Assembly (NCBI GenBank): GCA_965203485.1
Contig: OZ241892.1
Location: 2,464,001 to 2,528,000 of the forward strand
DNA length: 64,000 bases
Reading direction: 5' to 3'
Origin: Longimicrobiales bacterium
GTDB lineage: Bacteria > Gemmatimonadota > Gemmatimonadetes > Longimicrobiales > Gaopeijiaceae
Numbering within the stretch: position 1 is the stretch's first letter; each line of letters opens with the position of its first letter. The position numbers and the translations under genes were made by a program. Shown here piece after piece: positions 40,497 to 52,059 of this stretch. The notes under the pieces were generated by a model that made no database searches, was not told where the DNA came from, and saw only the letters and a program-made list of their open reading frames with translations.

Positions 40497-40759
40497 GTTC
40501 CCTCTCCTTTTTCGCGTCTGTGTCGTGTCGCGGCTCCGTCGGCGCCCCCGGGTGCGAGGGGCGCTGCAGGCTCTGGAGCGTCGCTCCGGCCGTCGCAGTT
40601 CCATAAGATAAGCTTGCGGTGCAACTGCGACCGTTCGCCTGCGGGCCACGCGGCCAACCCAGCGGCCCGCGACCGTTCCGGCCGACGGGGAGCGATCGTC
40701 CGGCAATCGCTGCGGGACAACGCTCCGAGCCGCGCCGCGACGGCCCCTTGCTCCGCCGG

Positions 40760-43000
40760 ATGCCGGAGAACCGCTTGGCCCAGACTCGTCCCGACTCGCC
40801 GCGCGCCGCCCCGGGTCGCCGGAGCGCGCCACCCCGAGGCGGGCTACGGCCGAGCCATTGGACGCCGGCCGCGGCTTCCATGGTTGTCGCCGTGGCGCTG
40901 GTAGGCGGGGTTGCGTTCCTGGTCGACTTGGCCCCGCGCGTGGAGGCCGACTTCTTCTTTGCGCCGGACGATCCGCAACTTCGCGCCTCGCGGGCGCTGG
41001 CCGAGCGGTATCCGGCGGGTGAAACGCTGATCGTCCGAGCCGAGGCGCCCGACATCGACGCGCCCGGATACGTGGCGCGCGTGGAAGCGCTTGGAGTTGC
41101 GCTGGATTCGCTGCCCGGGGTCGAGAGCGTGTTCTCGGTCGCCAGCGAGAACCGGTCGAGTCCCCTTTGGGGCCGGATCCTGACGCCGCCCGGCGGCCGC
41201 GCGACCAACGTCGTGGCACAACTCGGGCAACACGACGCGGAAGCGTTGGCGGACCGGGTCCGGACCGTGCTCGACGCGCATCGGGGGGCGGACTTCGCGC
41301 TGGCCGCTTCCGGCGTGCCCTTGATCGTGCAGCTGATCCGCCAGGGCTTGGCGCGCGACCTTGCCGTGTTCAGCACGGTCGCCTTCCTGGCGTTCGGGCT
41401 CGTCGCCGGGCTGGTCTACCGAGACCCGCGGGTCGTCGCCGGCACGCTCCTCGCCTGCGTCTCGGCCAGCGCGGCCACGCTGTTGGCAACGGCGGCGGCC
41501 GGCATCGGCGTCGGGCTGCTGACGGCCAACGTCGCCACCATCGTGTTCGTGCTGACCTTGTCGCACACGGTCTTCTTGGCGGCGAACTGGACCGAGGCGC
41601 CGCAACGAGGCGGCGCCCGCCGAAGTCGCGCGGCCGCCGCCGTCGCGCGCACTGCCGCTCCGTCGGCTTGGTGCATGGTCACGACGGCGCTCGGGTTCTC
41701 CAGCTTGCTGCTCGCTCCGGCGCGCCCGCTTCGCGAACTCGGCGCGGCGGGCGCCATCGGGACCGCCATGGCGTTCGCCTGCGCATTCACGATTCTGCCG
41801 GCGTGGCTGGCGGGCGCGCGTGTCCGCTCCTCGGCCGCCGGTCGGCAACTTGCGGCCGCCCGCCTGCCTGCATTCGGCGCGCGCGGACTGGTCCTGCTCG
41901 CGCTCGTGGTCGGCGGAGCGGGCGCGGGCGTTCTTCGTCTGAACACCGATCCCCCCCTGCTCAGCTACTTCGATCCTTCGGGGCCGATACGCCCCGGCCT
42001 GGAGGCGATCGACCGCGAGGGCGGCAGCAGTCCGTTGCTCTTCGCCGTCGGCGGCGCGGACGGCGAGCGCCTGGACAACATGTCCGCCTACGCGCGGCTG
42101 TGGGAGCTGCAGGATTCCCTCGAGGCCGACCCTGCCACCGGCATCGTGCTGTCTCCGGCGCCGTTGCTGGCCCATGCGCGCGAGCTGCCGCTGGCCCGCT
42201 TCCTTCCCGTGTCGCTCTTGCTCGGAATGCTGGAACGCCCCGAGACGGGCGACATCGCCCGCGGCTACTTCCGCGAGGACCGCCGCGAAGTCCTCTACTC
42301 GGTCCGCATGGTCGAGGCGGACAGGACCGAGAACCGCGACACGACGATCGCCCGGCTCGCGGCCCACGCCAACGCCGCCGGCCTCCGGGTCAACGCGACC
42401 GCGGGTCTCTTCGAACTGCAGCGCCACCTTGGCGAACTGATCGCCACGAGCCTCAAGACGGGCATCGGCGGTCTGCTGGGGCTGTTTCTTTTCGTCGGGC
42501 TGGGCGTCGCCCGGAGCGTTCGTGGAGCCGCCGCGATGCTCGTCTGTCTCCTAGCCATCCCGGCCATGGTGCTCGGCGTCTTCGGCCACCTGGGCGTGGC
42601 CGTGGACATCGTCGCGTCCCCCGCCGCGAACGTCGCGCTCGCCATGGGCGTGGACTCGATGATCCACGTCGCGATGCGGGCGCGCCGTGCCCACCCAACT
42701 CCGCCGTCGGCCTCCCGGCGCATCCGTTCGCAACGAGACGGCGGCGTAGACCACGACCGCCCCCGCACCGAAGGCGCGCACGCTTGGACCGACGCCGCCT
42801 CCGCTCTAGCCAAGCCAGTCGCCGCCGCCTGCGCCATCGTCTGCGTCGGCTTCGGCATCTTCGTCCTCTCGGACTTCCCGCCCACCCGCCGCTTCGGGCT
42901 GGCGGTCGTGCTCGGCACGGCGACCGCGTGCTTCGTTGCGCTGTTCGCGTTGCCAACCCTCGTGGAACGCCGCAACGGCCCCGGCCGCGCACGCGGTTAA
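40760..43000 (+). CDS. MMPL/RND family transporter
   Basis: Two TM bundles with periplasmic loops; TTALGFSSL, GVDSMIH, FPPTRRFG; start uncertain. Confidence 0.8.
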   Translation: MPENRLAQTRPDSPRAAPGRRSAPPRGGLRPSHWTPAAASMVVAVALVGGVAFLVDLAPRVEADFFFAPDDPQLRASRALAERYPAGETLIVRAEAPDIDAPGYVARVEALGVALDSLPGVESVFSVASENRSSPLWGRILTPPGGRATNVVAQLGQHDAEALADRVRTVLDAHRGADFALAASGVPLIVQLIRQGLARDLAVFSTVAFLAFGLVAGLVYRDPRVVAGTLLACVSASAATLLATAAAGIGVGLLTANVATIVFVLTLSHTVFLAANWTEAPQRGGARRSRAAAAVARTAAPSAWCMVTTALGFSSLLLAPARPLRELGAAGAIGTAMAFACAFTILPAWLAGARVRSSAAGRQLAAARLPAFGARGLVLLALVVGGAGAGVLRLNTDPPLLSYFDPSGPIRPGLEAIDREGGSSPLLFAVGGADGERLDNMSAYARLWELQDSLEADPATGIVLSPAPLLAHARELPLARFLPVSLLLGMLERPETGDIARGYFREDRREVLYSVRMVEADRTENRDTTIARLAAHANAAGLRVNATAGLFELQRHLGELIATSLKTGIGGLLGLFLFVGLGVARSVRGAAAMLVCLLAIPAMVLGVFGHLGVAVDIVASPAANVALAMGVDSMIHVAMRARRAHPTPPSASRRIRSQRDGGVDHDRPRTEGAHAWTDAASALAKPVAAACAIVCVGFGIFVLSDFPPTRRFGLAVVLGTATACFVALFALPTLVERRNGPGRARG

Positions 43001-43151: not shown

Positions 43152-43883
43152 CTAGAGCTTCAAGATGTTGTCCTCGCGCCGGTAGTTCTCGACCCCTTTG
43201 CCCATCCAACGCGAGGAGAGGACGATCATGCAGGCCGCGAACAGGATGCCGAGCGCCAGGCAGACGGCGATCCCCAGCGGGGACGCAACCCAAGCGGCGA
43301 TCGCCGCGATCCGTTCCGCGTCGAAGTAGGGCGCGAGGGCAGGTCCGACGATCCGGTCGCCGACGAAGGCCACGACGAAGGACGCGACGAAGAACAACGC
43401 AATGAGTTTTTCTGCGCGAAACCGCAGACACGTCGCCGAGGCCAGCGACGCCAACACCCAGCTGACGCCGCACAAGGCTGTCAAGGCGACGGCGAAGCCC
43501 CCGGCGCCCCACCACTCGAGAGAGGCGAACGGCGCCCACAGGTAGGGGGCGGTCACCAGAACGGCGAACACCGCCAGCGCCGCCAGCGCCGCCACCCGCG
43601 ACGCGCCGTGGACGTCGGCGGTCACGGGCAGGGACTTGAGAAACTCGAGATCGCCCGAGTAGCGGTCCTTCAGGGCGTTCGAGTATCCGAAAGCAGCCGG
43701 TCCCACGAGCGCCGCCGCGATCGCGGCGGCCGACGACGACACGTCCTCCATTATCGCGGTGAGCGCCAGCGGCATCACGATGCCCATGAGGGCGATGCCC
43801 GTGAACGATCTCGCGTGGCGCCGAAGCTCCATCGCTACGAGCCGCCGCAACGCGAGTCTACTGTTCCGCTTGCAGTATCTCAT
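43152..43883 (-). CDS. ABC-2 type exporter permease
   Basis: About six TM helices; FLKSLPVT motif; directly downstream of the ABC ATPase; start uncertain. Confidence 0.7.
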   Translation of the reverse strand: MRYCKRNSRLALRRLVAMELRRHARSFTGIALMGIVMPLALTAIMEDVSSSAAAIAAALVGPAAFGYSNALKDRYSGDLEFLKSLPVTADVHGASRVAALAALAVFAVLVTAPYLWAPFASLEWWGAGGFAVALTALCGVSWVLASLASATCLRFRAEKLIALFFVASFVVAFVGDRIVGPALAPYFDAERIAAIAAWVASPLGIAVCLALGILFAACMIVLSSRWMGKGVENYRREDNILKL

Positions 43884-44574
43884 ACAGAAGAGCATGGAGG
43901 GGTTGGGACGGATCCCGGCTTCTGATCTCGCTCACGGTGCGGTCCGCGACCAAGCGTCCGTTCTTGAGGAACAGCACGCGGTCGGCGATCCGCTCCACGT
44001 CTTCGAGAAGGTGGCTGGAAAACAGCACGAGGCGGTCCCCGCCGGCCGGCGCGCATTCGTCGACGACCTTGAGGAGCTCCCCGCGCATGAGCGGGTCGAT
44101 CGCGGACGTCGGTTCGTCCAGGAGTAGCAGCTTGGGACGGTGCGCCTCGGCCGCCACAAGCGAAAGCTTCACCTTCATGCCCTTGGAGAGCGTGCCCACC
44201 TTGACCCGGGGCGGCACCGCGAGTCGGTCGAGCAGCTCGAACGCGTGCTGTTCGTCCCACGTCGGGAAGAAGTCGGCTAGGAAGCGCAGATGGCCGGCCA
44301 CCGTCATCCATTCGAGCGCCAAGAGGCTCTCCGGCAGGAAGCCGACCGACGCGCGCACACCCGGCATCAACTCGCGGACATCCCGGCCGTCAATGTCGAT
44401 TCGGCCGTCGTAGTGGGACATCTGGCCGGCGACGGCTTTCAAGGTCGTGCTCTTTCCGGCGCCGTTCGCGCCCACGACCGCGATCCGCTCCCCGGCCGAG
44501 AACGCGACGTCCAGGGGGCCGAGCGTGAAGGCGGGATAGCGAACTCCGAATCGCTTGAGCGCTACCGACGGCAT
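43858..44574 (-). CDS. ABC transporter ATP-binding protein
   Basis: GANGAGKST, LSKGM, LLLDEPT, SSHLL. Confidence 0.92.
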   Translation of the reverse strand: MPSVALKRFGVRYPAFTLGPLDVAFSAGERIAVVGANGAGKSTTLKAVAGQMSHYDGRIDIDGRDVRELMPGVRASVGFLPESLLALEWMTVAGHLRFLADFFPTWDEQHAFELLDRLAVPPRVKVGTLSKGMKVKLSLVAAEAHRPKLLLLDEPTSAIDPLMRGELLKVVDECAPAGGDRLVLFSSHLLEDVERIADRVLFLKNGRLVADRTVSEIRSRDPSQPLHALLYEILQAEQ

Positions 44575-44587
44575 CCGGTTCTCCGGG

Positions 44588-45256
44588 CTAGTTCACCAAG
44601 CTCGCGCGCGCGACCGCGGCCGCCACGACCGCCGCCCACAGTCCCACGGCCAGCGAAGCCGAGCGGCGCAACGACATGGAGAATACCTCCCGCAACGCCA
44701 ACGAAAGGAACACCACCCACGCCAAGTGGGCAAGCGACACGCTCTGGGCGGCCGCCGCCAACAAGGGACGGTCCGGCGAGACCAGGGCAGCCAACCCAAT
44801 CGGACCCGCGAGCGTCTCGCGGCCCCCGAGCGCCACCGTCAAGTGCACGTAGAGCCCCGCGAACACGCCGCGCAACGCCATGAGCGCCTCGCCATAGAGG
44901 AAGACCGACAGCAATGGCCGCAGCCGCGCGCCGGAACTCAGGAAAGCCAATGCCGCCCATGCGAACGCGGCCAGCAAGCCCGCCTTGACCAGCGTCGTCA
45001 CCGGAGCCAGCGCGATCAAGATCCAGAACATCGTCTCCGCCGTGACCGCATCCGCAGCCTCGCCCGAAGCGCCGCCGAAGAAGACCGGCCGCAACGACAG
45101 CAGGGCGCCCACCGACACGACGAAGGCCGCCAACAGCGGCGGCAGCACCGGCTCTCTGCGGCGGATGTCCCGCAAGCTCGGCACCATCAGGCCGAAGAAC
45201 GTCTTCACGCGCGATTCCGGCGCGGACGGCTCGCCGGACACCAAGACGGCGATCAT
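44588..45256 (-). CDS. Yip1-like multi-pass membrane protein
   Basis: About five TM helices with a Yip1-like layout; ATGA overlap with thioredoxin stop. Confidence 0.6.
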   Translation of the reverse strand: MIAVLVSGEPSAPESRVKTFFGLMVPSLRDIRRREPVLPPLLAAFVVSVGALLSLRPVFFGGASGEAADAVTAETMFWILIALAPVTTLVKAGLLAAFAWAALAFLSSGARLRPLLSVFLYGEALMALRGVFAGLYVHLTVALGGRETLAGPIGLAALVSPDRPLLAAAAQSVSLAHLAWVVFLSLALREVFSMSLRRSASLAVGLWAAVVAAAVARASLVN

Positions 45257-45786
45257 CGCGGCATCCCCACAGCGTCCATGGCCTGCGCGAGTTGCCTCCG
45301 CGTCGACCGTCCAACGCGCACGATCCGGACCGTGTCCGTCCGGTCGGTCCAGTACGTGACCGGCACGTAGCGCACGGCCAGCGCGCGCGCAATGCTGCTG
45401 TCGGCGTCCGCGATCGCGCGGTTGCGCATGGCCGGCGGTATCCACGACATGTCTCCCCGAGCGTCCGGGGCCGCGATCACCCACACGTTGGCCCGGACGC
45501 CGTCTTCGATCATGGCTTCCCAGCGTGCTAGTTGCTCCTTGCAATACGGGCAGGTCGGCGTCGCATACATCAACGCGGACGGCCCCTCGAGGCTGGACTC
45601 CGACCGCCAGTCGTCGCCGCTGCTCGTTCGGCCCGCCAACGCCGGCAACGGCCATGGCGGCTCCGGCCCCGAAGACCGCTGCCCGCCGTCGACCAGCTTG
45701 AACGGCGCGACCACGCACACGGCCACGCCCAGACCAACTGCAAGTGCAATCAACTTCCTCGTTCTTGCCCCGTCCTTGTTCTTCAT
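45253..45786 (-). CDS. Membrane-anchored thioredoxin-like (TlpA/Bdb-type) oxidoreductase
   Basis: N-terminal TM anchor, CPYC, YVPVTY cis-Pro loop; GGAG RBS. Confidence 0.8.
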   Translation of the reverse strand: MKNKDGARTRKLIALAVGLGVAVCVVAPFKLVDGGQRSSGPEPPWPLPALAGRTSSGDDWRSESSLEGPSALMYATPTCPYCKEQLARWEAMIEDGVRANVWVIAAPDARGDMSWIPPAMRNRAIADADSSIARALAVRYVPVTYWTDRTDTVRIVRVGRSTRRQLAQAMDAVGMPR

Positions 45787-45808
45787 GCCGCTTCGTCTCC
45801 GCAGATGT

Positions 45809-45843
45809 GGCTCGGGACGCACCACCGGCGTGCCTCCCGAGCC
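45809..45843. terminator. Stem-loop between peptide genes and processing/export genes
   Basis: GGCTCGGGA-C-GCAC-N7-GTGC-C-TCCCGAGCC. Confidence 0.5.
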
Positions 45844-45886
45844 GGGTTCACCTCAGCTTTCCATGAGGGCGCCGTGTTGCCCCTTA

Positions 45887-46123
45887 CTACTTGCTAAGGT
45901 CGCACCTCGCGCATCGCGCGGGGAAGATCAGGCGATAGAACCAGGAGGAGCGACAGGCCGAACAGAAGAGAAGGTCTTCCTCGACCGGCCTGCAGACGAC
46001 CCAGTCGTCTTCGTCTATTTCCTGGGACTGCAACGGTGCGGGCGGGAGGCCCGTAGCGGCAGAGCCGGCCACGGCCGCGGCGAGAACGAAATGCGAGAAC
46101 TTCCATGCTTGCTTGGCTTTCAT
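45887..46123 (-). CDS. 78-aa secreted Cys-rich peptide (C, CxxC, CxxC)
   Basis: GGAG RBS; signal-like N-terminus; acidic segment, then CSAC and CARC. Confidence 0.65.
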   Translation of the reverse strand: MKAKQAWKFSHFVLAAAVAGSAATGLPPAPLQSQEIDEDDWVVCRPVEEDLLFCSACRSSWFYRLIFPARCARCDLSK

Positions 46124-46181
46124 GATGTTTCTCCGATGTGGATGTGGATTCCTTGTTTTTCGGTTGATTCCTTGCGGCGAT

Positions 46182-46328
46182 CTAGAAGAACGCCGCCTTG
46201 CACGTTCCCACGCACGCCGGGACAATGACTCCGGCCGGCGATATCAACAGCATAGCCAGACCGAGCACGCTGCTGCCGCCCAGGGCGAGGATGGCTGCCG
46301 CGCAGCCTATGCATGCGACTTTGACCAC
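46182..46328 (-). CDS. 48-aa hydrophobic CxxC...CVxxC peptide (P3; absent from ORF track)
   Basis: AAGGAG 6 nt upstream of GTG; MVKVACIGCAAAILALGGSSVLGLAMLLISPAGVIVPACVGTCKAAFF. Confidence 0.75.
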   Translation of the reverse strand: MVKVACIGCAAAILALGGSSVLGLAMLLISPAGVIVPACVGTCKAAFF

Positions 46329-46380
46329 TGCGAACTCCTTTCTCGTCTTGCACGAGGTTGATGTCTTCGATTGGCATCAG

Positions 46381-46539
46381 TCAGAAGAGACTGGCGCATG
46401 TGGCTACGCAAGCCAGGACCGCGAGGGTCGAGCCCGGAGTCGCGGCGGCCGCGAGCCATGCAGCCGGGCCGGCGGCCGCAAGCCCGATTCCGGCGGCCAC
46501 GCATCCTCCGCACCCCAACACCGCCAGCATCGTCTTCAT
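46381..46539 (-). CDS. 52-aa hydrophobic CxxC...CVxxC peptide (P2)
   Basis: ATGA overlap with P1 stop; MKTMLAVLGCGGCVAAGIGLAAAGPAAWLAAAATPGSTLAVLACVATCASLF. Confidence 0.75.
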   Translation of the reverse strand: MKTMLAVLGCGGCVAAGIGLAAAGPAAWLAAAATPGSTLAVLACVATCASLF

Positions 46540-46847
46540 CGGATTGCCCCCACAGCTGCCGCGCATGCGGCCACGCACGTCAGTGCGGTCGCAACCGCAT
46601 GTTTCGGGTTGCGGAGAAACCATCCCCAAACGGGCACGCCGATCATGCTGAGCACGGTCATCCCGGCCCCGACGGCAACGCACGTCAGGCATCCTTGCGT
46701 GGCTCCGAAGCCGCCGCCGCCGTCCTGTGCGCCGACCCCGGGCGGGGCGGTCGGCAACGCCGACGCGGACGCCGGCGCCGCGCCGAACGCGCTTGCGGTT
46801 GCCGTCGCCAGCAGGACGGCAAGCGCGGCGATGCGATGCTTACTCAT
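46536..46847 (-). CDS. 103-aa precursor: signal peptide + pro-region + CxxC...CVxxC core (P1)
   Basis: AAGGAGGT RBS; Sec-type signal; core CLTC...CVAAC. Confidence 0.8.
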   Translation of the reverse strand: MSKHRIAALAVLLATATASAFGAAPASASALPTAPPGVGAQDGGGGFGATQGCLTCVAVGAGMTVLSMIGVPVWGWFLRNPKHAVATALTCVAACAAAVGAIR

Positions 46848-47691
46848 GTGCTACCTCCTTGTGGAGTGAATGAAAGTCCCCCGCGGCGAAGCGCCGCAGG
46901 AGCGGGGTCCGGCAACGTCCGGCAAGGAGGGTTCCTCGCCGGGCCAGCCCGCGTTGGACATGTCTGTTCGCGTGGAAAAGGCCAAGCCGCCGCGCCCGCC
47001 CCAAGCGCTTCGGCGCCGGACCGCTCGCCGCGCGCCAAGAGGCGACCCCGAGCGCAACCAGCCCCGCGAGCGCCAGAAGGGCGAAGGCGCGGCGGGGACG
47101 GCGGCGGTTGGGGGAGCTGCGCAGGAGCATGGGGCCAGGGGTCGGGGCGGTCGGCTGCAAGTCGTGGAGCAGACGCTAGTCAAACGCCTGGGACGCCTAC
47201 ATAGCTGGATGGGTCCGCTCTCGCAGCGTCCGCGGAGCCGCCGAATCGAGCGAAACGACAAGTCCAGCAAGGCTGTTCGGGCGATGCTCCCACTGGCGGC
47301 GCTCGCGCAGCTTGGCGCCCGCGACGAGGAAGATCTTGCGCAACGCGGTTGCGAACGGCCGATCAGCCGCGGGGCCGCCGCGATGCCGGCGGCGGGATTG
47401 ACCGAGCCCGAACCGGACGCGGACACGGAGCCGCGCTAGGCGTCTCTGCAAACGCGGTGGGCCTGATGCGAATTGATCGGGCCCGAACCGGACGCCGGGG
47501 CCGGGAGGCCGCCCGGACGAACCCGGACGCGTGGCGGCGCGACGGAAAGCCCGCACGGCCGGGAACCGAAGCGCATGCCGCTGCGACGGCGCGCGCACAA
47601 ACCGAAGCCGGAGGCTAGGCGCCAACAAGCGACTGCGCCAGCCTCGGCAGACCTGGAACGCGCGGTCAGGTCGCGAAGCCGCCCGCTTCCG

Positions 47692-48312
47692 CTACATGCC
47701 CTTCAGCGCGTCCAGGATGTCTTGGTTGGAAGGCCGGACGCGGTAGTCGGTCTCCACGAACTTCCACCTCACCACGCCGTCCCGGTCGAGGACGAACGTG
47801 GCCGGATGGGGAACGGGACGCCGCGGGGGGGAGTCCGCGTTGAAGAGTCCGTAGCGGTCGATGACGCGGTGGTCCGGGTCCGACAGCATCACGAAGTCGG
47901 GCCGGGCGCCACCGTCGGCCACGATCCGGTCGATCATCATCTGCTGCCTCTCCCGGTCGTCGACGGAAACCGTCACGATCGCCGTCCCTTCGCGGAGGTC
48001 CGGCGGCAGGAGGTCTCTCAGCTCGCCGAGCTGACGGGCGCAGTGCGGTCACCAGTGTCCGCGGTAGAAGACGAGGACGACGTTCTTCTCGCCCCTGAAG
48101 CCCGCCAGCGCCACCGGCGGCCCCTCGAAGGACTCCAGGACGAAGAGAGGCGCCTCGTCGCCGACCGAGACGCGCCCGAGGTCGGAGCCCGGCAAGTCGT
48201 TCCCGTCGGCCGGACCGAGGACCGGCTGTTGAGCCATGAGGCGCGAGGAGGGGGCAGTCGCGGCAACCGCGAGGGCCGCGGCCGTCGCGAGGGCCGGTGC
48301 GGTACGGATCAT
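47692..48312 (-). CDS. Selenocysteine-containing AhpC/TSA peroxiredoxin-like protein (UxxC)
   Basis: FYRGHW-TGA-PHCARQL reads in frame into ...PHPATFVLDRDGVVRW; SECIS-like hairpin follows. Confidence 0.85.
48018..48034 (-). promoter_or_regulatory. Candidate bacterial SECIS element
   Basis: UCAGCUC-GGC-GAGCUGA hairpin starting 14 nt after the in-frame UGA (48049-48051). Confidence 0.7.
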
Positions 48313-48595: not shown

Positions 48596-49741
48596 GTGCC
48601 CCTTCCCGAATCCATCTCCGGCGCGTCCGACGACGGCGTCTACTACCTGCACGGGGCAGACGAGTTCCGCAAGGACCAAGCGGCGAGGCGCCTCGTGGAG
48701 CGGTTCGCCGACGCGGGCACGCGCGACTTCAACCTGGACCGGCTGGACGGCGCCCGGACGACGGTCGAGCAGCTCGCGACGGTCGCGGCCACGCCGCCGA
48801 TGATGGCCGAGCGGCGGGTGGTGCACCTCGTCTCGGCGGAAGCGCTCGCGGGCAGCGCAAAGGCGCGCGCCGTTCTCCTGGACTTGGCCAAGAGTCCGCC
48901 CCCGGGGCTCGTCCTGATCGTGCAGGCGACGGTTCCGGGGCGCTCGACGGCCAAGTTCTACAAGGAGTTGGCGCGGCTCGCGACGACCGCCGAGTTCAAG
49001 GCGATACCGGAGAACGAAGCCCCGGCGTGGCTGGTCACGTGGGCGGCCGAGGAGCTCGAAGCAGTCGTCGAACTCGATGCCGCGAGGGCGCTGGCGGCGG
49101 CGCTGGGATCGAACCTGGGCATGCTGTCGAACGAGGTGCGAAAGCTGGCGGGGATGGTTGCCGACGGCGCGCCGGTGGATCTCGAAGCCGTCCGCGCGGG
49201 AGGATTCGAGATCGCCCGGCAGGATCGCTGGGCTTGGTTCGACGCGGTCGGGCGCCGCCGAATCGCCGAGGCGCTGAAGGGGCTTCCGGTCCTCGTGCGG
49301 CAGGGCGAAGCTCCGATCGCCCTCGTGAGCGGCCTGGCCGCGCATCTCCTGCGCATCGGAGTGGCGGCGGAAGGCGGCGCGAGCGCGTTGAAGGCCGCGT
49401 TGCCGCCGCACCAGAAGTTCCTGGCGAAGCGCTTGGCAAGCCAAGCGCGGCAGTGGAACCGCGCCGACTTGGCGGCCGCGGTCAGGAGGCTGCGACGGCT
49501 CGACCGCCTGCTCAAGGCGAGTTCCCTGCCCGGCGACGGGCTCTTGGAAGAGTGGCTCCACGGGGTGGCGGCCCGCGATGCGCCTGCCCGAGCCGGGCGG
49601 CGCCGGAAAGACCGGATGGCGCAGACGAGCGGCAGGCCGTCGGCGCGACGGAGGACGACCGCGGCCGCGCCGGGCGCCGACGACCGGGAGGAGTCGACGA
49701 CGGGGCGGACGAACTCCCGGCGCCGGGCAACGCGAACGTGA
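48596..49741 (+). CDS. holA: DNA polymerase III delta subunit
   Basis: [41 protein letters not shown]. Confidence 0.85.
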
Positions 49742-52059
49742 GATCGGACCAAGCCGGCCCGGGCGAGAGGACGGGCGCCGTCCAGGCCGCGGGCGCCGAA
49801 GTCGCATTGCGGATTTCGGGGATGCACTGCGCCAGCTGCGTGTCCTCCGTGGAGCGCGCTCTGGAGGGAGTGGCCGGGGTGGTCCGGGCGGAAGTCAACC
49901 TCGTGCAGGAGACTGCGAGAGTCCGGATCGCGAGCGCCGCGGAGGGCGTCGCGGCCGCCGGCGAGGCGATGGAAAGGGCGGTCGCGGCGGCGGGATACGA
50001 AGCCGCGGCGCTCGTCGGCGCGCAGGCGGAAGACGAGGCCGCGCGGGCTCGCGACGCCGGCCGCGACGAGGAGGTTCGCGCGCTGCTGCGGCGGTTCAGG
50101 GTCGCCGCGTTGTTCGGCCTGCCCGTGTTCGTCCTCGGCCACTGGGACATGATCCCGTGGCTGACGCCGATGAGCGAAGCGGCGCGGACCGGGGCGTGGC
50201 GCGCGTCCGCGCTGCTCACGGCGCCCGTTCTGCTGTACGCGGGTCGCGGCTTCTTCGCGGGCGCGTGGTCCGCCGGGCGGCGCGGGCGGTTCACGATGGA
50301 TTCGCTGGTGGCGCTGGGAACGGGGGCCGCTTGGCTTCAGTCGATGACGGTGGTCCTCGCGCCCGGCCTGCTGCCCGGCCAGCTGGGCAGGCCCTTCTTC
50401 GAGGCGGTTGCCGCCGTCGTCGCGCTCGTGCTCCTCGGACAGGCGCTGGAGGCCCGCGCCAAGGGACGCACCGCGCGCGCGTTGCGGGAGCTCTTCGCGC
50501 TGGCGCCCGACACGGCCGAGCGCCTTCGCGACGACCGAGACCAAGCGGAGACGCAGACCGTTCCCTTGGCCGAAGTGCGTCCCGGCGATCTCCTGCTGGT
50601 GCGCCCCGGCGGGCGCGTGCCGCTGGACGGCGTCGTCCGGTCGGGCGCAAGCGAAGTGGACGAGTCCATGCTCACCGGCGAGAGCTTGCCCGTCGCGAAG
50701 GCGGCGGGCGACGCGGTGACCGGCGGCTCGGTCAACGGCGCCGGCGCCCTGGTCGTGGAGGTCGTCCGCGTGGGAGAAGACACCGTTCTGGCTCGCATCG
50801 TGGACATGGTGAGGCGAGCCCAAGCCGCGAAGCCGCCGGTCCAGCGAACGGTGGACGCCGTGGCCGGCTGGTTCGTGCCGTCGGTCGTGGTGGTCGCGGC
50901 CGCCACGTTCGCGGCGTGGGCCGCGTGGGGACCCGAGCCGCGCCTGAACTTCGCCGTGGCGACCGCCGTGTCCGTCCTGGTCGTCGCTTGCCCGTGCGCG
51001 ATGGGACTCGCCACGCCCCTCTCGGTCATGATCGCGATCGGCCAAGCGGCCCGGCGCGGCGTATTGATCCGCGACGGCGGCGCACTGCAGCGGGCCCGGC
51101 GCGTGGACACGGTCCTCCTGGACAAGACCGGCACCGTCACCGAAGGCCGCCCCGCCGTGGCGAGCGCGCACCCGGGCCCGGCCCTCTCGGAGGCCGAAAT
51201 GCTCGCATGGGCGGCCAGCGCCGAGGCCGCGTCCGAGCACCCCGTCGCCCACGCGATCGTTCGGTACGCCGCCGAGCTGGGGACGCCGCTCCGTCCCGCC
51301 GAGCGCTTCGCCGCCCACCCCGGCCTTGGGGCTTCGGCGATCGTCGAGGGGAAACGCGTCCTGGTGGGGTCGGCCGCGTTTCTGGAAGGCGCGGGCGTGA
51401 AGTTGGAGGCGGCGGCGGCCACGCTGGCCGGTTTGGCGGAAGCGGGGCTGACGGCGGTGCTCGCGGCCGTGAACGGGAACCTGGTGGGCGTGCTCGGAGT
51501 GGAGGACCGCGTCCGGCCCGAAGCCGCGGCCGCCGTTCGGCGCCTCCAAGACCGCGGCATCGAGGTGCGGATGGCGACCGGCGACGAAGAGGGCCCGGCC
51601 CTGCGCGCGGCCCGGAGGGTTGGGATCGAGCGGGTGACGGCGAGGGCCTCCCCTGCGGAGAAGGCGGATCTCGTGGCCGGTTTGCGCGAGCGCGGGCGCG
51701 TCGTGGCGATGATCGGCGACGGCATCAACGACGGGCCGGCGCTCGCCCGGGCCGACGTGGGCATCGCCATGGGCGGCGGGACCGACGTGGCGCGCGAAGC
51801 GGGCGACGTCGTGCTGCTGGGCAACTCGCTGCGGGGAGCCGCGACGCTGCTGGGCCTGTCGCGCGCGGCAACGCGGAACATCGCGCAGAACTTGGTGGGA
51901 GCCTTCGCCTACAACGTCGTGGCGATTCCGGTGGCCGCCGGTCTGCTCTACCCGTGGACGGGCCTTCTGTTGTCGCCCGCCATCGCGGGCGCGGCCATGG
52001 CGCTCAGCTCGGTGACCGTCGTCGCCAACGCCAACCGCCTACGCCGCTGGCGGGGCTAG
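49738..52059 (+). CDS. copA: Cu(I)-translocating P1B-type ATPase
   Basis: GMHCASC HMA domain, TGES, CPC, DKTGT, SEHP, GDGIND, YN and MALSS. Confidence 0.9.

Follow-up and report, generated by a model that had tools for sequence, protein, structure and literature searches.

What is made by a compact run of small cysteine-rich peptide genes that is followed by genes for a thioredoxin-like protein, a Yip1-like membrane protein and an ATP-binding cassette (ABC) transporter? The run lies in the genome of a Longimicrobiales bacterium, within the window analysed here (contig OZ241892.1, positions 2,464,001 to 2,528,000; 64,000 nucleotides), and an initial annotation had read it as a disulfide-stapled, bacteriocin-like operon whose unit was three similar peptides, P1 to P3. 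Comparison with related genomes showed that it is a real cassette of Gemmatimonadota, encoding paired small hydrophobic four-cysteine peptides. The conserved unit is a pair of paralogous peptides, A and B, represented in the window by P2 and P3; P1 proved to be an extra found at the level of the genus. The eight co-oriented minus-strand open reading frames (ORFs) that had been claimed were all present, and a deleted C39 peptidase gene immediately 5′ of P1 had been overlooked. The features of the locus, in window coordinates, are as follows.

46840 to 47130, minus strand: relic of a C39 peptidase gene of the membrane-anchored, stand-alone type; the N-terminal anchor and 3′ tail are kept and the catalytic domain is deleted.
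46878 to 46902, minus strand: GC-rich stem just 5′ of the P1 ribosome-binding site; weak (z −1.85).
46536 to 46847, minus strand: accessory peptide P1, with a signal peptide, a Gly-rich linker, a CxxC-x34-CxxxC core, a net charge of +3 and Trp present; its relatives are P0115 and P0117.
46381 to 46539, minus strand: P2, core peptide A, leaderless here; spacer 30, ATGA overlap with P1, pN/pS (non-synonymous to synonymous polymorphism) 0.37–0.49.
46182 to 46328, minus strand: P3, core peptide B, leaderless here; spacer 29 (28 in most relatives), GTG start after AAGGAG.
45887 to 46123, minus strand: P4, a secreted accessory peptide of a separate, genus-level family; five Cys, CxxC-x13-CxxC.
45809 to 45843, minus strand: stem-loop without a U tail, between the peptide and machinery genes (z −2.0).
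45253 to 45786, minus strand: membrane-anchored thioredoxin-fold protein with CPYC and a Val-Pro loop.
44588 to 45256, minus strand: Yip1-like membrane protein (PF04893, E 8.8e-5, below cut-off).
43858 to 44574, minus strand: ABC ATPase (PF00005, E 5.6e-25; best NCBIfam match PmtA, 126 bits against a cut-off of 350).
43152 to 43895, minus strand: ABC-2 type permease (PF13346, E 0.011), starting at either 43895 or 43832.

P1 to P3 shared the layout that had been ascribed to them, with spacers of 34, 30 and 29 residues between CxxC and CxxxC. Across the six frames of the 3.56 Mb genome, CxxC-x20-45-CxxxC was found 34 times, and a hydrophobic fraction above 0.55 occurred in three of these 34 matches, namely P1 to P3, in tandem. 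The proposed linkage of the genes was also borne out: Shine-Dalgarno-like words precede P1, P3, P4, the thioredoxin and the ABC gene, ATGA overlaps join P1 to P2 and the thioredoxin to Yip1, and the hairpin was confirmed as the stem at 45843–45809. Other details did not extend to the family. CVxxC is not a general motif, with V present in 18 of 50 A and three of 36 B peptides, and the (N/T/S)P kink describes a part of it, Pro being found in 24 of 50 A and 33 of 36 B and absent from the remainder. The ATPase was identified clearly, unlike the thioredoxin, Yip1 and permease, whose labels have Pfam matches that fall under the curated cut-offs (17.9 of 27, 22.9 of 28.6 and 15.7 of 25 bits, respectively). 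The permease start is uncertain, no ribosome-binding site being found at 43895.

The order of the cassette is C39 peptidase, A, B, optional extra peptides, thioredoxin, Yip1, ABC ATPase and permease. A search for conserved cysteine spacing and synteny, as the annotation had suggested, found both the Cys pattern and the thioredoxin-Yip1-ABC linkage conserved. The order C39-thioredoxin-Yip1-ABC-permease was co-oriented in 30 of 33 distinct loci; two lacked the C39 gene and one runs off the edge of its locus. The paralogues A and B (98.8%) have the form CxxC-x30-CxxxC and CxxC-x28-CxxxC, respectively, and A precedes B (A is broken in locus L065). With the thioredoxin as query, a search that takes no account of the peptides, 11 of 61 related genomes were matched, and the same peptide pattern and gene order were found in five of ten regions located in this way, including all four strong thioredoxin matches; L016 and L018–L021 were weak thioredoxin matches without peptides. 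Of 401 genomes of the phylum, 20 were matched by a profile built from 14 cores; these fall in five families, with 11 of 24 in a single genus. Among representative proteins the profile found 97 matches, and CxxC-x28-31-CxxxC was kept in 95 of the 96 that were examined. By spacer length these proteins form two classes, near 30 for A and near 28 for B. Searching 185,579 species genomes with a DNA pattern for B gave 21 matches. Eleven of these were titled Gemmatimonadota and all had the cassette (two of the 11 duplicate loci already found, from the same family as the window); the remaining ten had neither peptide frame nor cassette and were dropped as chance matches. In L065 (genome G129, 5862–2664) the cassette is broken, with a truncated peptide A about 2.9 kb from B.

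Beyond the phylum, no credible profile match was found in Planctomycetota, Pseudomonadota, Desulfobacterota or Bacillota (301 genomes each; one weak match in 1204, without operon genes). The cassette was not matched on plasmids, a metagenome scan with the thioredoxin gave five weak loci with peptides in none, and a word-based search using P2 alone and a PDB sequence search with the peptides were both empty. The annotation had recognised no named family, and this was upheld: P1 to P4 had no Pfam or NCBIfam match above cut-off, and A and B no PDB family. The NCBIfam collection includes halocin C8-like models.

The cassette is an optional unit. In two genera (14 loci) it follows the same peroxiredoxin-like gene; in other families the flanks differ. 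Five complete congeners without the peptides were also without a match to the Yip1 query, and in three of the five the peroxiredoxin-like gene directly precedes the downstream neighbour, the whole cassette being missing at the same site. Such absence would be expected of a toxin-protection unit.

How the peptides may mature was suggested by relatives outside this genus, in which a stand-alone C39 peptidase gene precedes the peptides. Its product of about 200–240 amino acids has an Arg-rich start and a hydrophobic anchor, so that by the positive-inside rule it would probably face the periplasm. PF03412 was above cut-off in all three proteins tested (70.9–83.3 bits against 22), and the catalytic Gln and Cys were present in 31 of 31 sequences and the His motif in 30 of 31. 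The best NCBIfam matches of the peptidase were to bacteriocin transporters (E 1e-13), with weaker ones to FapD (E 1e-6) and the pilus protein FilB (E 2e-4). The CxxC of the thioredoxin was intact in 32 of 33 loci by script and was seen in the last by separate inspection.

The precursors begin with a Sec-type signal and a mostly acidic pro-region, followed by G-x-G, usually six residues before the first Cys; the leader, signal peptide included, is about 45–50 residues long. Signal peptides and topology were assigned by simple rules rather than a trained predictor. By a hydrophobicity rule, 83 of 91 extended precursors had signal-like N-termini, with no Tat motif and two possible lipoboxes. [VILA]-x-G-x-[GQ] was found ahead of 71 of 81 peptide cores and in 55 of 599 background windows; in the accessory peptides of one genus this motif takes the form V-V/I/M-G-G-Q, a textbook double-glycine site. 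A cut after V-x-G-x is the likely register and would leave a mature core of about 50 residues with Gly or Gln first. A predicted double-glycine-type leader together with a C39 peptidase strengthens the bacteriocin reading.

The cores are very hydrophobic (mean grand average of hydropathy 1.33–1.38), and tails of 3 to 13 residues follow the last Cys. AlphaFold2 placed three helices in both A and B (predicted local distance difference test 71.6 and 85.8), CxxC lying in the first of them and CxxxC in the third. Nested C1-C4 and C2-C3 disulfides would follow from the antiparallel geometry of such a hairpin. Fold searches returned generic helical hairpins only (best Z 4.9, root-mean-square deviation (rmsd) 3.1, 42 aligned; and Z 6.1, rmsd 2.2, 52 aligned), and Foldseek found no match to the peptide models. 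Prediction of an A+B complex scored 0.01 against a mark of 0.32, which counts neither for nor against pairing. ESM Atlas matches reached at most 0.81, and by ESM features circular bacteriocins ranked 9 and 12 (scores 0.77 and 0.76), which serves only as a lead.

The genome of the window (G000) carries a variant of this arrangement. Its C39 relic aligned with the intact gene of congener G002 at 44% identity over 45 codons (47139–47005) and at 73% DNA identity (46956–46830), and PF03412 was not found in G000 or in G001, both single-contig and 95% complete. Assembly error was rejected as the cause of the deletion: contigs from three runs showed no difference from this stretch (two of them may be the source sample itself), and G001 shares the loss. 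A and B of this genome begin with Met near the former cut site, and the leaderless P2 and P3 have 52 and 48 residues, intact frames and a computed mass of 4.6–4.8 kDa. With Met retained, the calculated monoisotopic masses are 4762.4 for reduced P2 and 4758.4 for the form with two disulfides, and 4576.5 and 4572.4 for the corresponding forms of P3. Leaders are missing from both A and B in G000 and G001; G002 has an intact peptidase gene, a leaderless A and a B that retains its leader. Loss of the B leader and loss of C39 go together in all three genomes, which are not independent cases. Leaderless A thus occurs in all three genomes of the genus, and also in three further database proteins; leaderless B occurs, besides this genome, in G001 and three further database proteins. 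All four Cys are kept in each case, and leaderlessness is read as a derived state within the family. Polymorphism ratios, based on few codons and close kin, were 0.37–0.49 for P2, 0.47–0.53 for the thioredoxin and 0.24–0.35 for ABC. P3 ranged from 0.33 to 0.91, and between G000 and G001 the values were 0.91 for P3, 0.71 for P1 and 0.76 for P4. By this measure P2 is under purifying selection comparable to that on the thioredoxin, and P3 is mixed.

Whether this genome's copy is decaying, whatever the family does, is a question to be judged separately from those of function below. With the peptidase and leaders gone, P2 and P3 would no longer leave the cytoplasm; the higher ratios of P3, P1 and P4, the degenerate P1 of G002 and the broken A of G129 point the same way. 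Against this, all eight frames are intact, the P2 ratio is as low as that of the thioredoxin, leaderless A and B with four Cys recur in the genus and in database proteins, and P3 has its own ribosome-binding site. These counter-points rest on few codons and close kin, and on balance we consider decay unlikely.

What, then, would the family do? Only the gene anatomy has been observed, and the function is predicted from it. The reading that we favour, with slightly more than even confidence, is that A and B form a membrane-active bacteriocin or microcin of the two-peptide kind, each peptide stapled by two disulfides; maturation would take place on the periplasmic side of the inner membrane, and Yip1-ABC would serve for extraction and self-protection. 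The precursors, with the signal peptide, acidic pro-region and hydrophobic core seen in their sequences, would enter the Sec pathway. The anchored thioredoxin, facing the periplasm and perhaps recycled by VKOR, would close the nested disulfides across the modelled helical hairpin, and the membrane-anchored C39 peptidase would release the mature peptide. Yip1 and the ABC-2 pump would pull the peptides from the producer's inner membrane, giving both release and self-protection, and A and B together would permeabilise the membranes of competing bacteria, probably related diderms. In the genome of the window, because the peptidase is deleted and A and B are leaderless, these two would either pass through the ABC-Yip1 module or insert directly into the membrane to reach the periplasmic face; Sec would still serve P1 and P4.

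A wider reading is possible but less likely than not. This would be a phylum-specific class of antibacterial peptides in which Sec export is followed by trimming at a double-glycine-type site and by disulfide stapling, each carried out by its own membrane-tethered periplasmic enzyme and neither coupled to the ABC pump, and in which one genus is switching stepwise to leaderless peptides while retaining the thioredoxin-Yip1-ABC module. The leader of A would have been lost first (G002), then that of B together with the peptidase (G000, G001).

Several points weigh against an antibacterial role. Killing by A and B is a prediction, and the named precedents for an exported stand-alone C39 peptidase, FapD and FilB, belong to surface-fibre systems. 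The near-invariance of the cysteines among profile matches (95 of 96) is partly built in by the profile itself. C39 enzymes usually cleave at GG or GA, as outlined in PMC5557850 and PMC10233263; here the residue preceding the cut was Gly or Ala in only 32 of the 71 cases, with Arg or Gln in another 21, which leaves the position of the cut a prediction rather than a proven site. Unlike the cationic bacteriocins of Gram-positive bacteria, 41 of 55 A cores and 33 of 40 B cores carried no net positive charge. Neither the operon genes nor the 54 flanking ORFs that were scanned (selected from 101 candidates by codon bias, plus two window genes) included a membrane-fusion protein or outer-membrane channel, so that no route out of a diderm cell was recognised. 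Finally, no small dedicated immunity gene was recognised in the cassette; Yip1-ABC may serve as immunity.

The alternative that survives best, though we consider it unlikely, makes A and B subunits of an envelope or surface structure, such as a pilin-like fibre or a hydrophobic coat. These would be Sec-inserted hairpins, trimmed by the periplasmic C39 peptidase as FapD does and extracted by the ABC pump. FapD is described in PMC5557850 as periplasmic and required for fibre secretion, and the weaker C39 matches to FapD and FilB, the strict A-then-B order and the neutral cores would fit such subunits, as would weak matches to the TrbC/VirB2 pilin model (PF04956) in two of 56 A and one of 41 B (best E 0.016 and 0.0033). 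The best C39 matches are nevertheless to bacteriocin transporters, a locus may have anything from 0 to 3 extra peptides, and the TrbC model matched no peptide gene in five carrier genomes at E 0.1. The flanks contained no type IV secretion system genes, and neither a secretin nor a barrel nor an assembly ATPase was found within the cassette or next to it.

A slightly less likely possibility is that the peptides are non-lethal secreted amphiphiles or signals, either phenol-soluble-modulin-like surfactants for biofilm or host surfaces, or pheromones. The high hydrophobicity of the cores is compatible with this, as is the best NCBIfam match of the ATPase to the modulin exporter PmtA, which lies far under its cut-off. 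However, no conserved regulator or sensor kinase was found among the 54 flanking ORFs, the flanks differ between families, and stapling and a two-gene pair would exceed what a pheromone needs. Very improbable is that the four cysteines bind metal (Zn, Cu or Fe), with the thioredoxin keeping them reduced and the ABC system moving the loaded peptide: CxxC and CxxxC could make a four-thiol metal site, and in 14 loci of two genera a peroxiredoxin-like gene of the selenocysteine type is found upstream, but that gene stays where the cassette is lost and is non-adjacent in other families, the double-glycine-type leader and C39 peptidase indicate peptide maturation, and a match to a metal-binding family, which the annotation had named as evidence against itself, was found for none of P1 to P3, P4 having weak zinc-ribbon matches only (E 0.026).

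The two-peptide bacteriocin or microcin reading concerns A and B, and the accessory peptides differ between lineages. P1 and P4 are genus-level extras with signal peptides; few relatives of either are known, and all resemble forms from this genus. P4 had been grouped with the others as a fourth Cys-rich peptide; it is Cys-rich, but belongs to a different family from P1 to P3 (CxxC-x8-13-CxxC plus a fifth Cys). In congener G002 (L013, 8362–7033) P1 is degenerate and P4 duplicated, with a stem-loop after each copy. The stem at 45843–45809 recurs in four copies across the genus, with both-sided changes at three of 13 pairs; its conservation is established for this one genus only, and it probably stabilises the peptide mRNA. 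The extras of other genera are different peptides, with spacers near 17–22. Two or three such shorter-spacer peptides lie between B and the thioredoxin in L052, L061, L063, L066, L068 and L069, and many of them would begin with Gln after V-x-G-G, possibly as pyroglutamate. In L071, L073 and L079 a third, shorter CxxC-CxxxC peptide lies 5′ of the C39 gene.

Some neighbouring genes were also recorded. VKOR is present in the genome, and a VKOR-thioredoxin fusion gene lies directly 5′ of one cassette (L073, 5681–6985). At 48312–47692 of the window (minus strand) is a gene for a secreted protein of the AhpC/TSA family, in which a TGA lies in frame where the first residue of a CxxC-like motif (U-P-H-C) would be encoded. 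This TGA was kept in all 14 loci examined and the genome has tRNA-Sec, and the gene likely encodes a selenoprotein. An MMPL-family transporter gene (40619–43000, plus strand) is convergent with the cassette and conserved in the genus. An ORF at about 49700–52059 (plus strand) has CxxC, CPC and DKTGT motifs, from which we presume it to be a copper-type P-type ATPase.

The family was not described in the literature searched, which covered titles and the starts of abstracts and left most subscription journals outside, and a search for Gemmatimonadota with bacteriocin and C39 peptidase gave no match. The accessible parts of Gemmatimonadota genome papers (PMC11316326, PMC11651109, PMC10469786) mention only lasso peptides, Nif11-type bacteriocins, microcin genes, ranthipeptides, proteusins, polyketides and unspecified 'RiPP-like' clusters; their supplements may list these loci under the last of these. 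Gram-negative bacteria have yielded few known peptide antibiotics with disulfide bonds. Nothing in the cassette calls for exotic chemistry, and the leaderless peptides (52 and 48 residues) could be synthesised directly. If these are functional, they would document an origin of leaderless from leader-bearing bacteriocins and make Yip1-ABC the true peptide translocator. Pairs with and without leaders are in any case a natural experiment on the role of Yip1 in bacteriocin clusters and on the substrates of exported stand-alone C39 peptidases.

Among known systems, glycocins such as sublancin, with BdbA/B, resemble the cassette as modelled in their helix-loop-helix fold, two nested disulfides, oxidoreductase and C39 cleavage. 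The cassette differs in having other Cys spacing and paired, far more hydrophobic peptides, and no glycosyltransferase was found among the operon genes or the 54 flanking ORFs (E 1e-5). The Fap amyloid system shares an exported stand-alone C39 peptidase, FapD, acting on Sec-exported substrates (outlined in PMC5557850), but the cassette has no FapF-like barrel or amyloid repeats, and its substrates are predicted to be helical and Cys-stapled.

Yip1 proteins are reported from circular and leaderless bacteriocin clusters in PMC11580447 and PMC8659200, and the Yip1 homologue YknW serves a pump (YknWXYZ) that resists SdpC, according to PMC4338810; in all of these, as here, Yip1 and an ABC transporter stand beside hydrophobic helical peptides. 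Compared with circular bacteriocins, the cassette has four invariant Cys and C-terminal tails that vary from 3 to 13 residues, which argues against head-to-tail cyclisation. With regard to the saposin-like fold of circular bacteriocins, its three-helix hairpin models gave generic matches only (best Z 4.9 and 6.1). SpoIIM/DUF95 was not among the operon genes; the only match in G000 was about 205 kb distant, and two of five carriers had none. P2 and P3 are leader-free, as in leaderless bacteriocins, whereas most relatives carry leaders, and the four invariant Cys and the thioredoxin suggest that, unlike those bacteriocins, the peptides would need oxidation before activity.

Class IIa microcins of the MccV type are the nearest Gram-negative counterparts, being Gly-rich, hydrophobic and mostly neutral or anionic, with disulfides (predicted here) and a double-glycine cut, as presented in PMC10233263. 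According to the same source, they use a leader of 15–18 residues ending in GG or GA, a peptidase-containing ABC transporter, a membrane-fusion protein and TolC, in contrast to the leader of about 45–50 residues and the lack of such export genes here. Class II microcins have masses of 5–10 kDa and are unmodified apart from disulfides; P2 and P3, at a computed 4.6–4.8 kDa, are hydrophobic, and their disulfides are predicted. For thermophilin 13 (ThmA+ThmB), of the class IIb or Blp-like bacteriocins, PMC10059821 describes two peptides that together form a poration complex, accompanied by an oxidoreductase and a C39 transporter; it is alike in its adjacent hydrophobic pair, double-glycine-type C39 processing (predicted here) and clustered thiol-disulfide oxidoreductase. 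In class IIb the C39 domain is fused to the ABC exporter, whereas here it is separate and membrane-anchored and the ATPase has none; the precursors add a Sec-type signal and four Cys per peptide, they come from a diderm host, and Pfam has no match to them. The cassette would work like a class IIb bacteriocin or a class IIa microcin but falls outside the export definition of both; it also lacks the SpoIIM gene expected of circular bacteriocins and the glycosyltransferase expected of glycocins. The peptide family is real and apparently undescribed, and its maturation route would be unusual.

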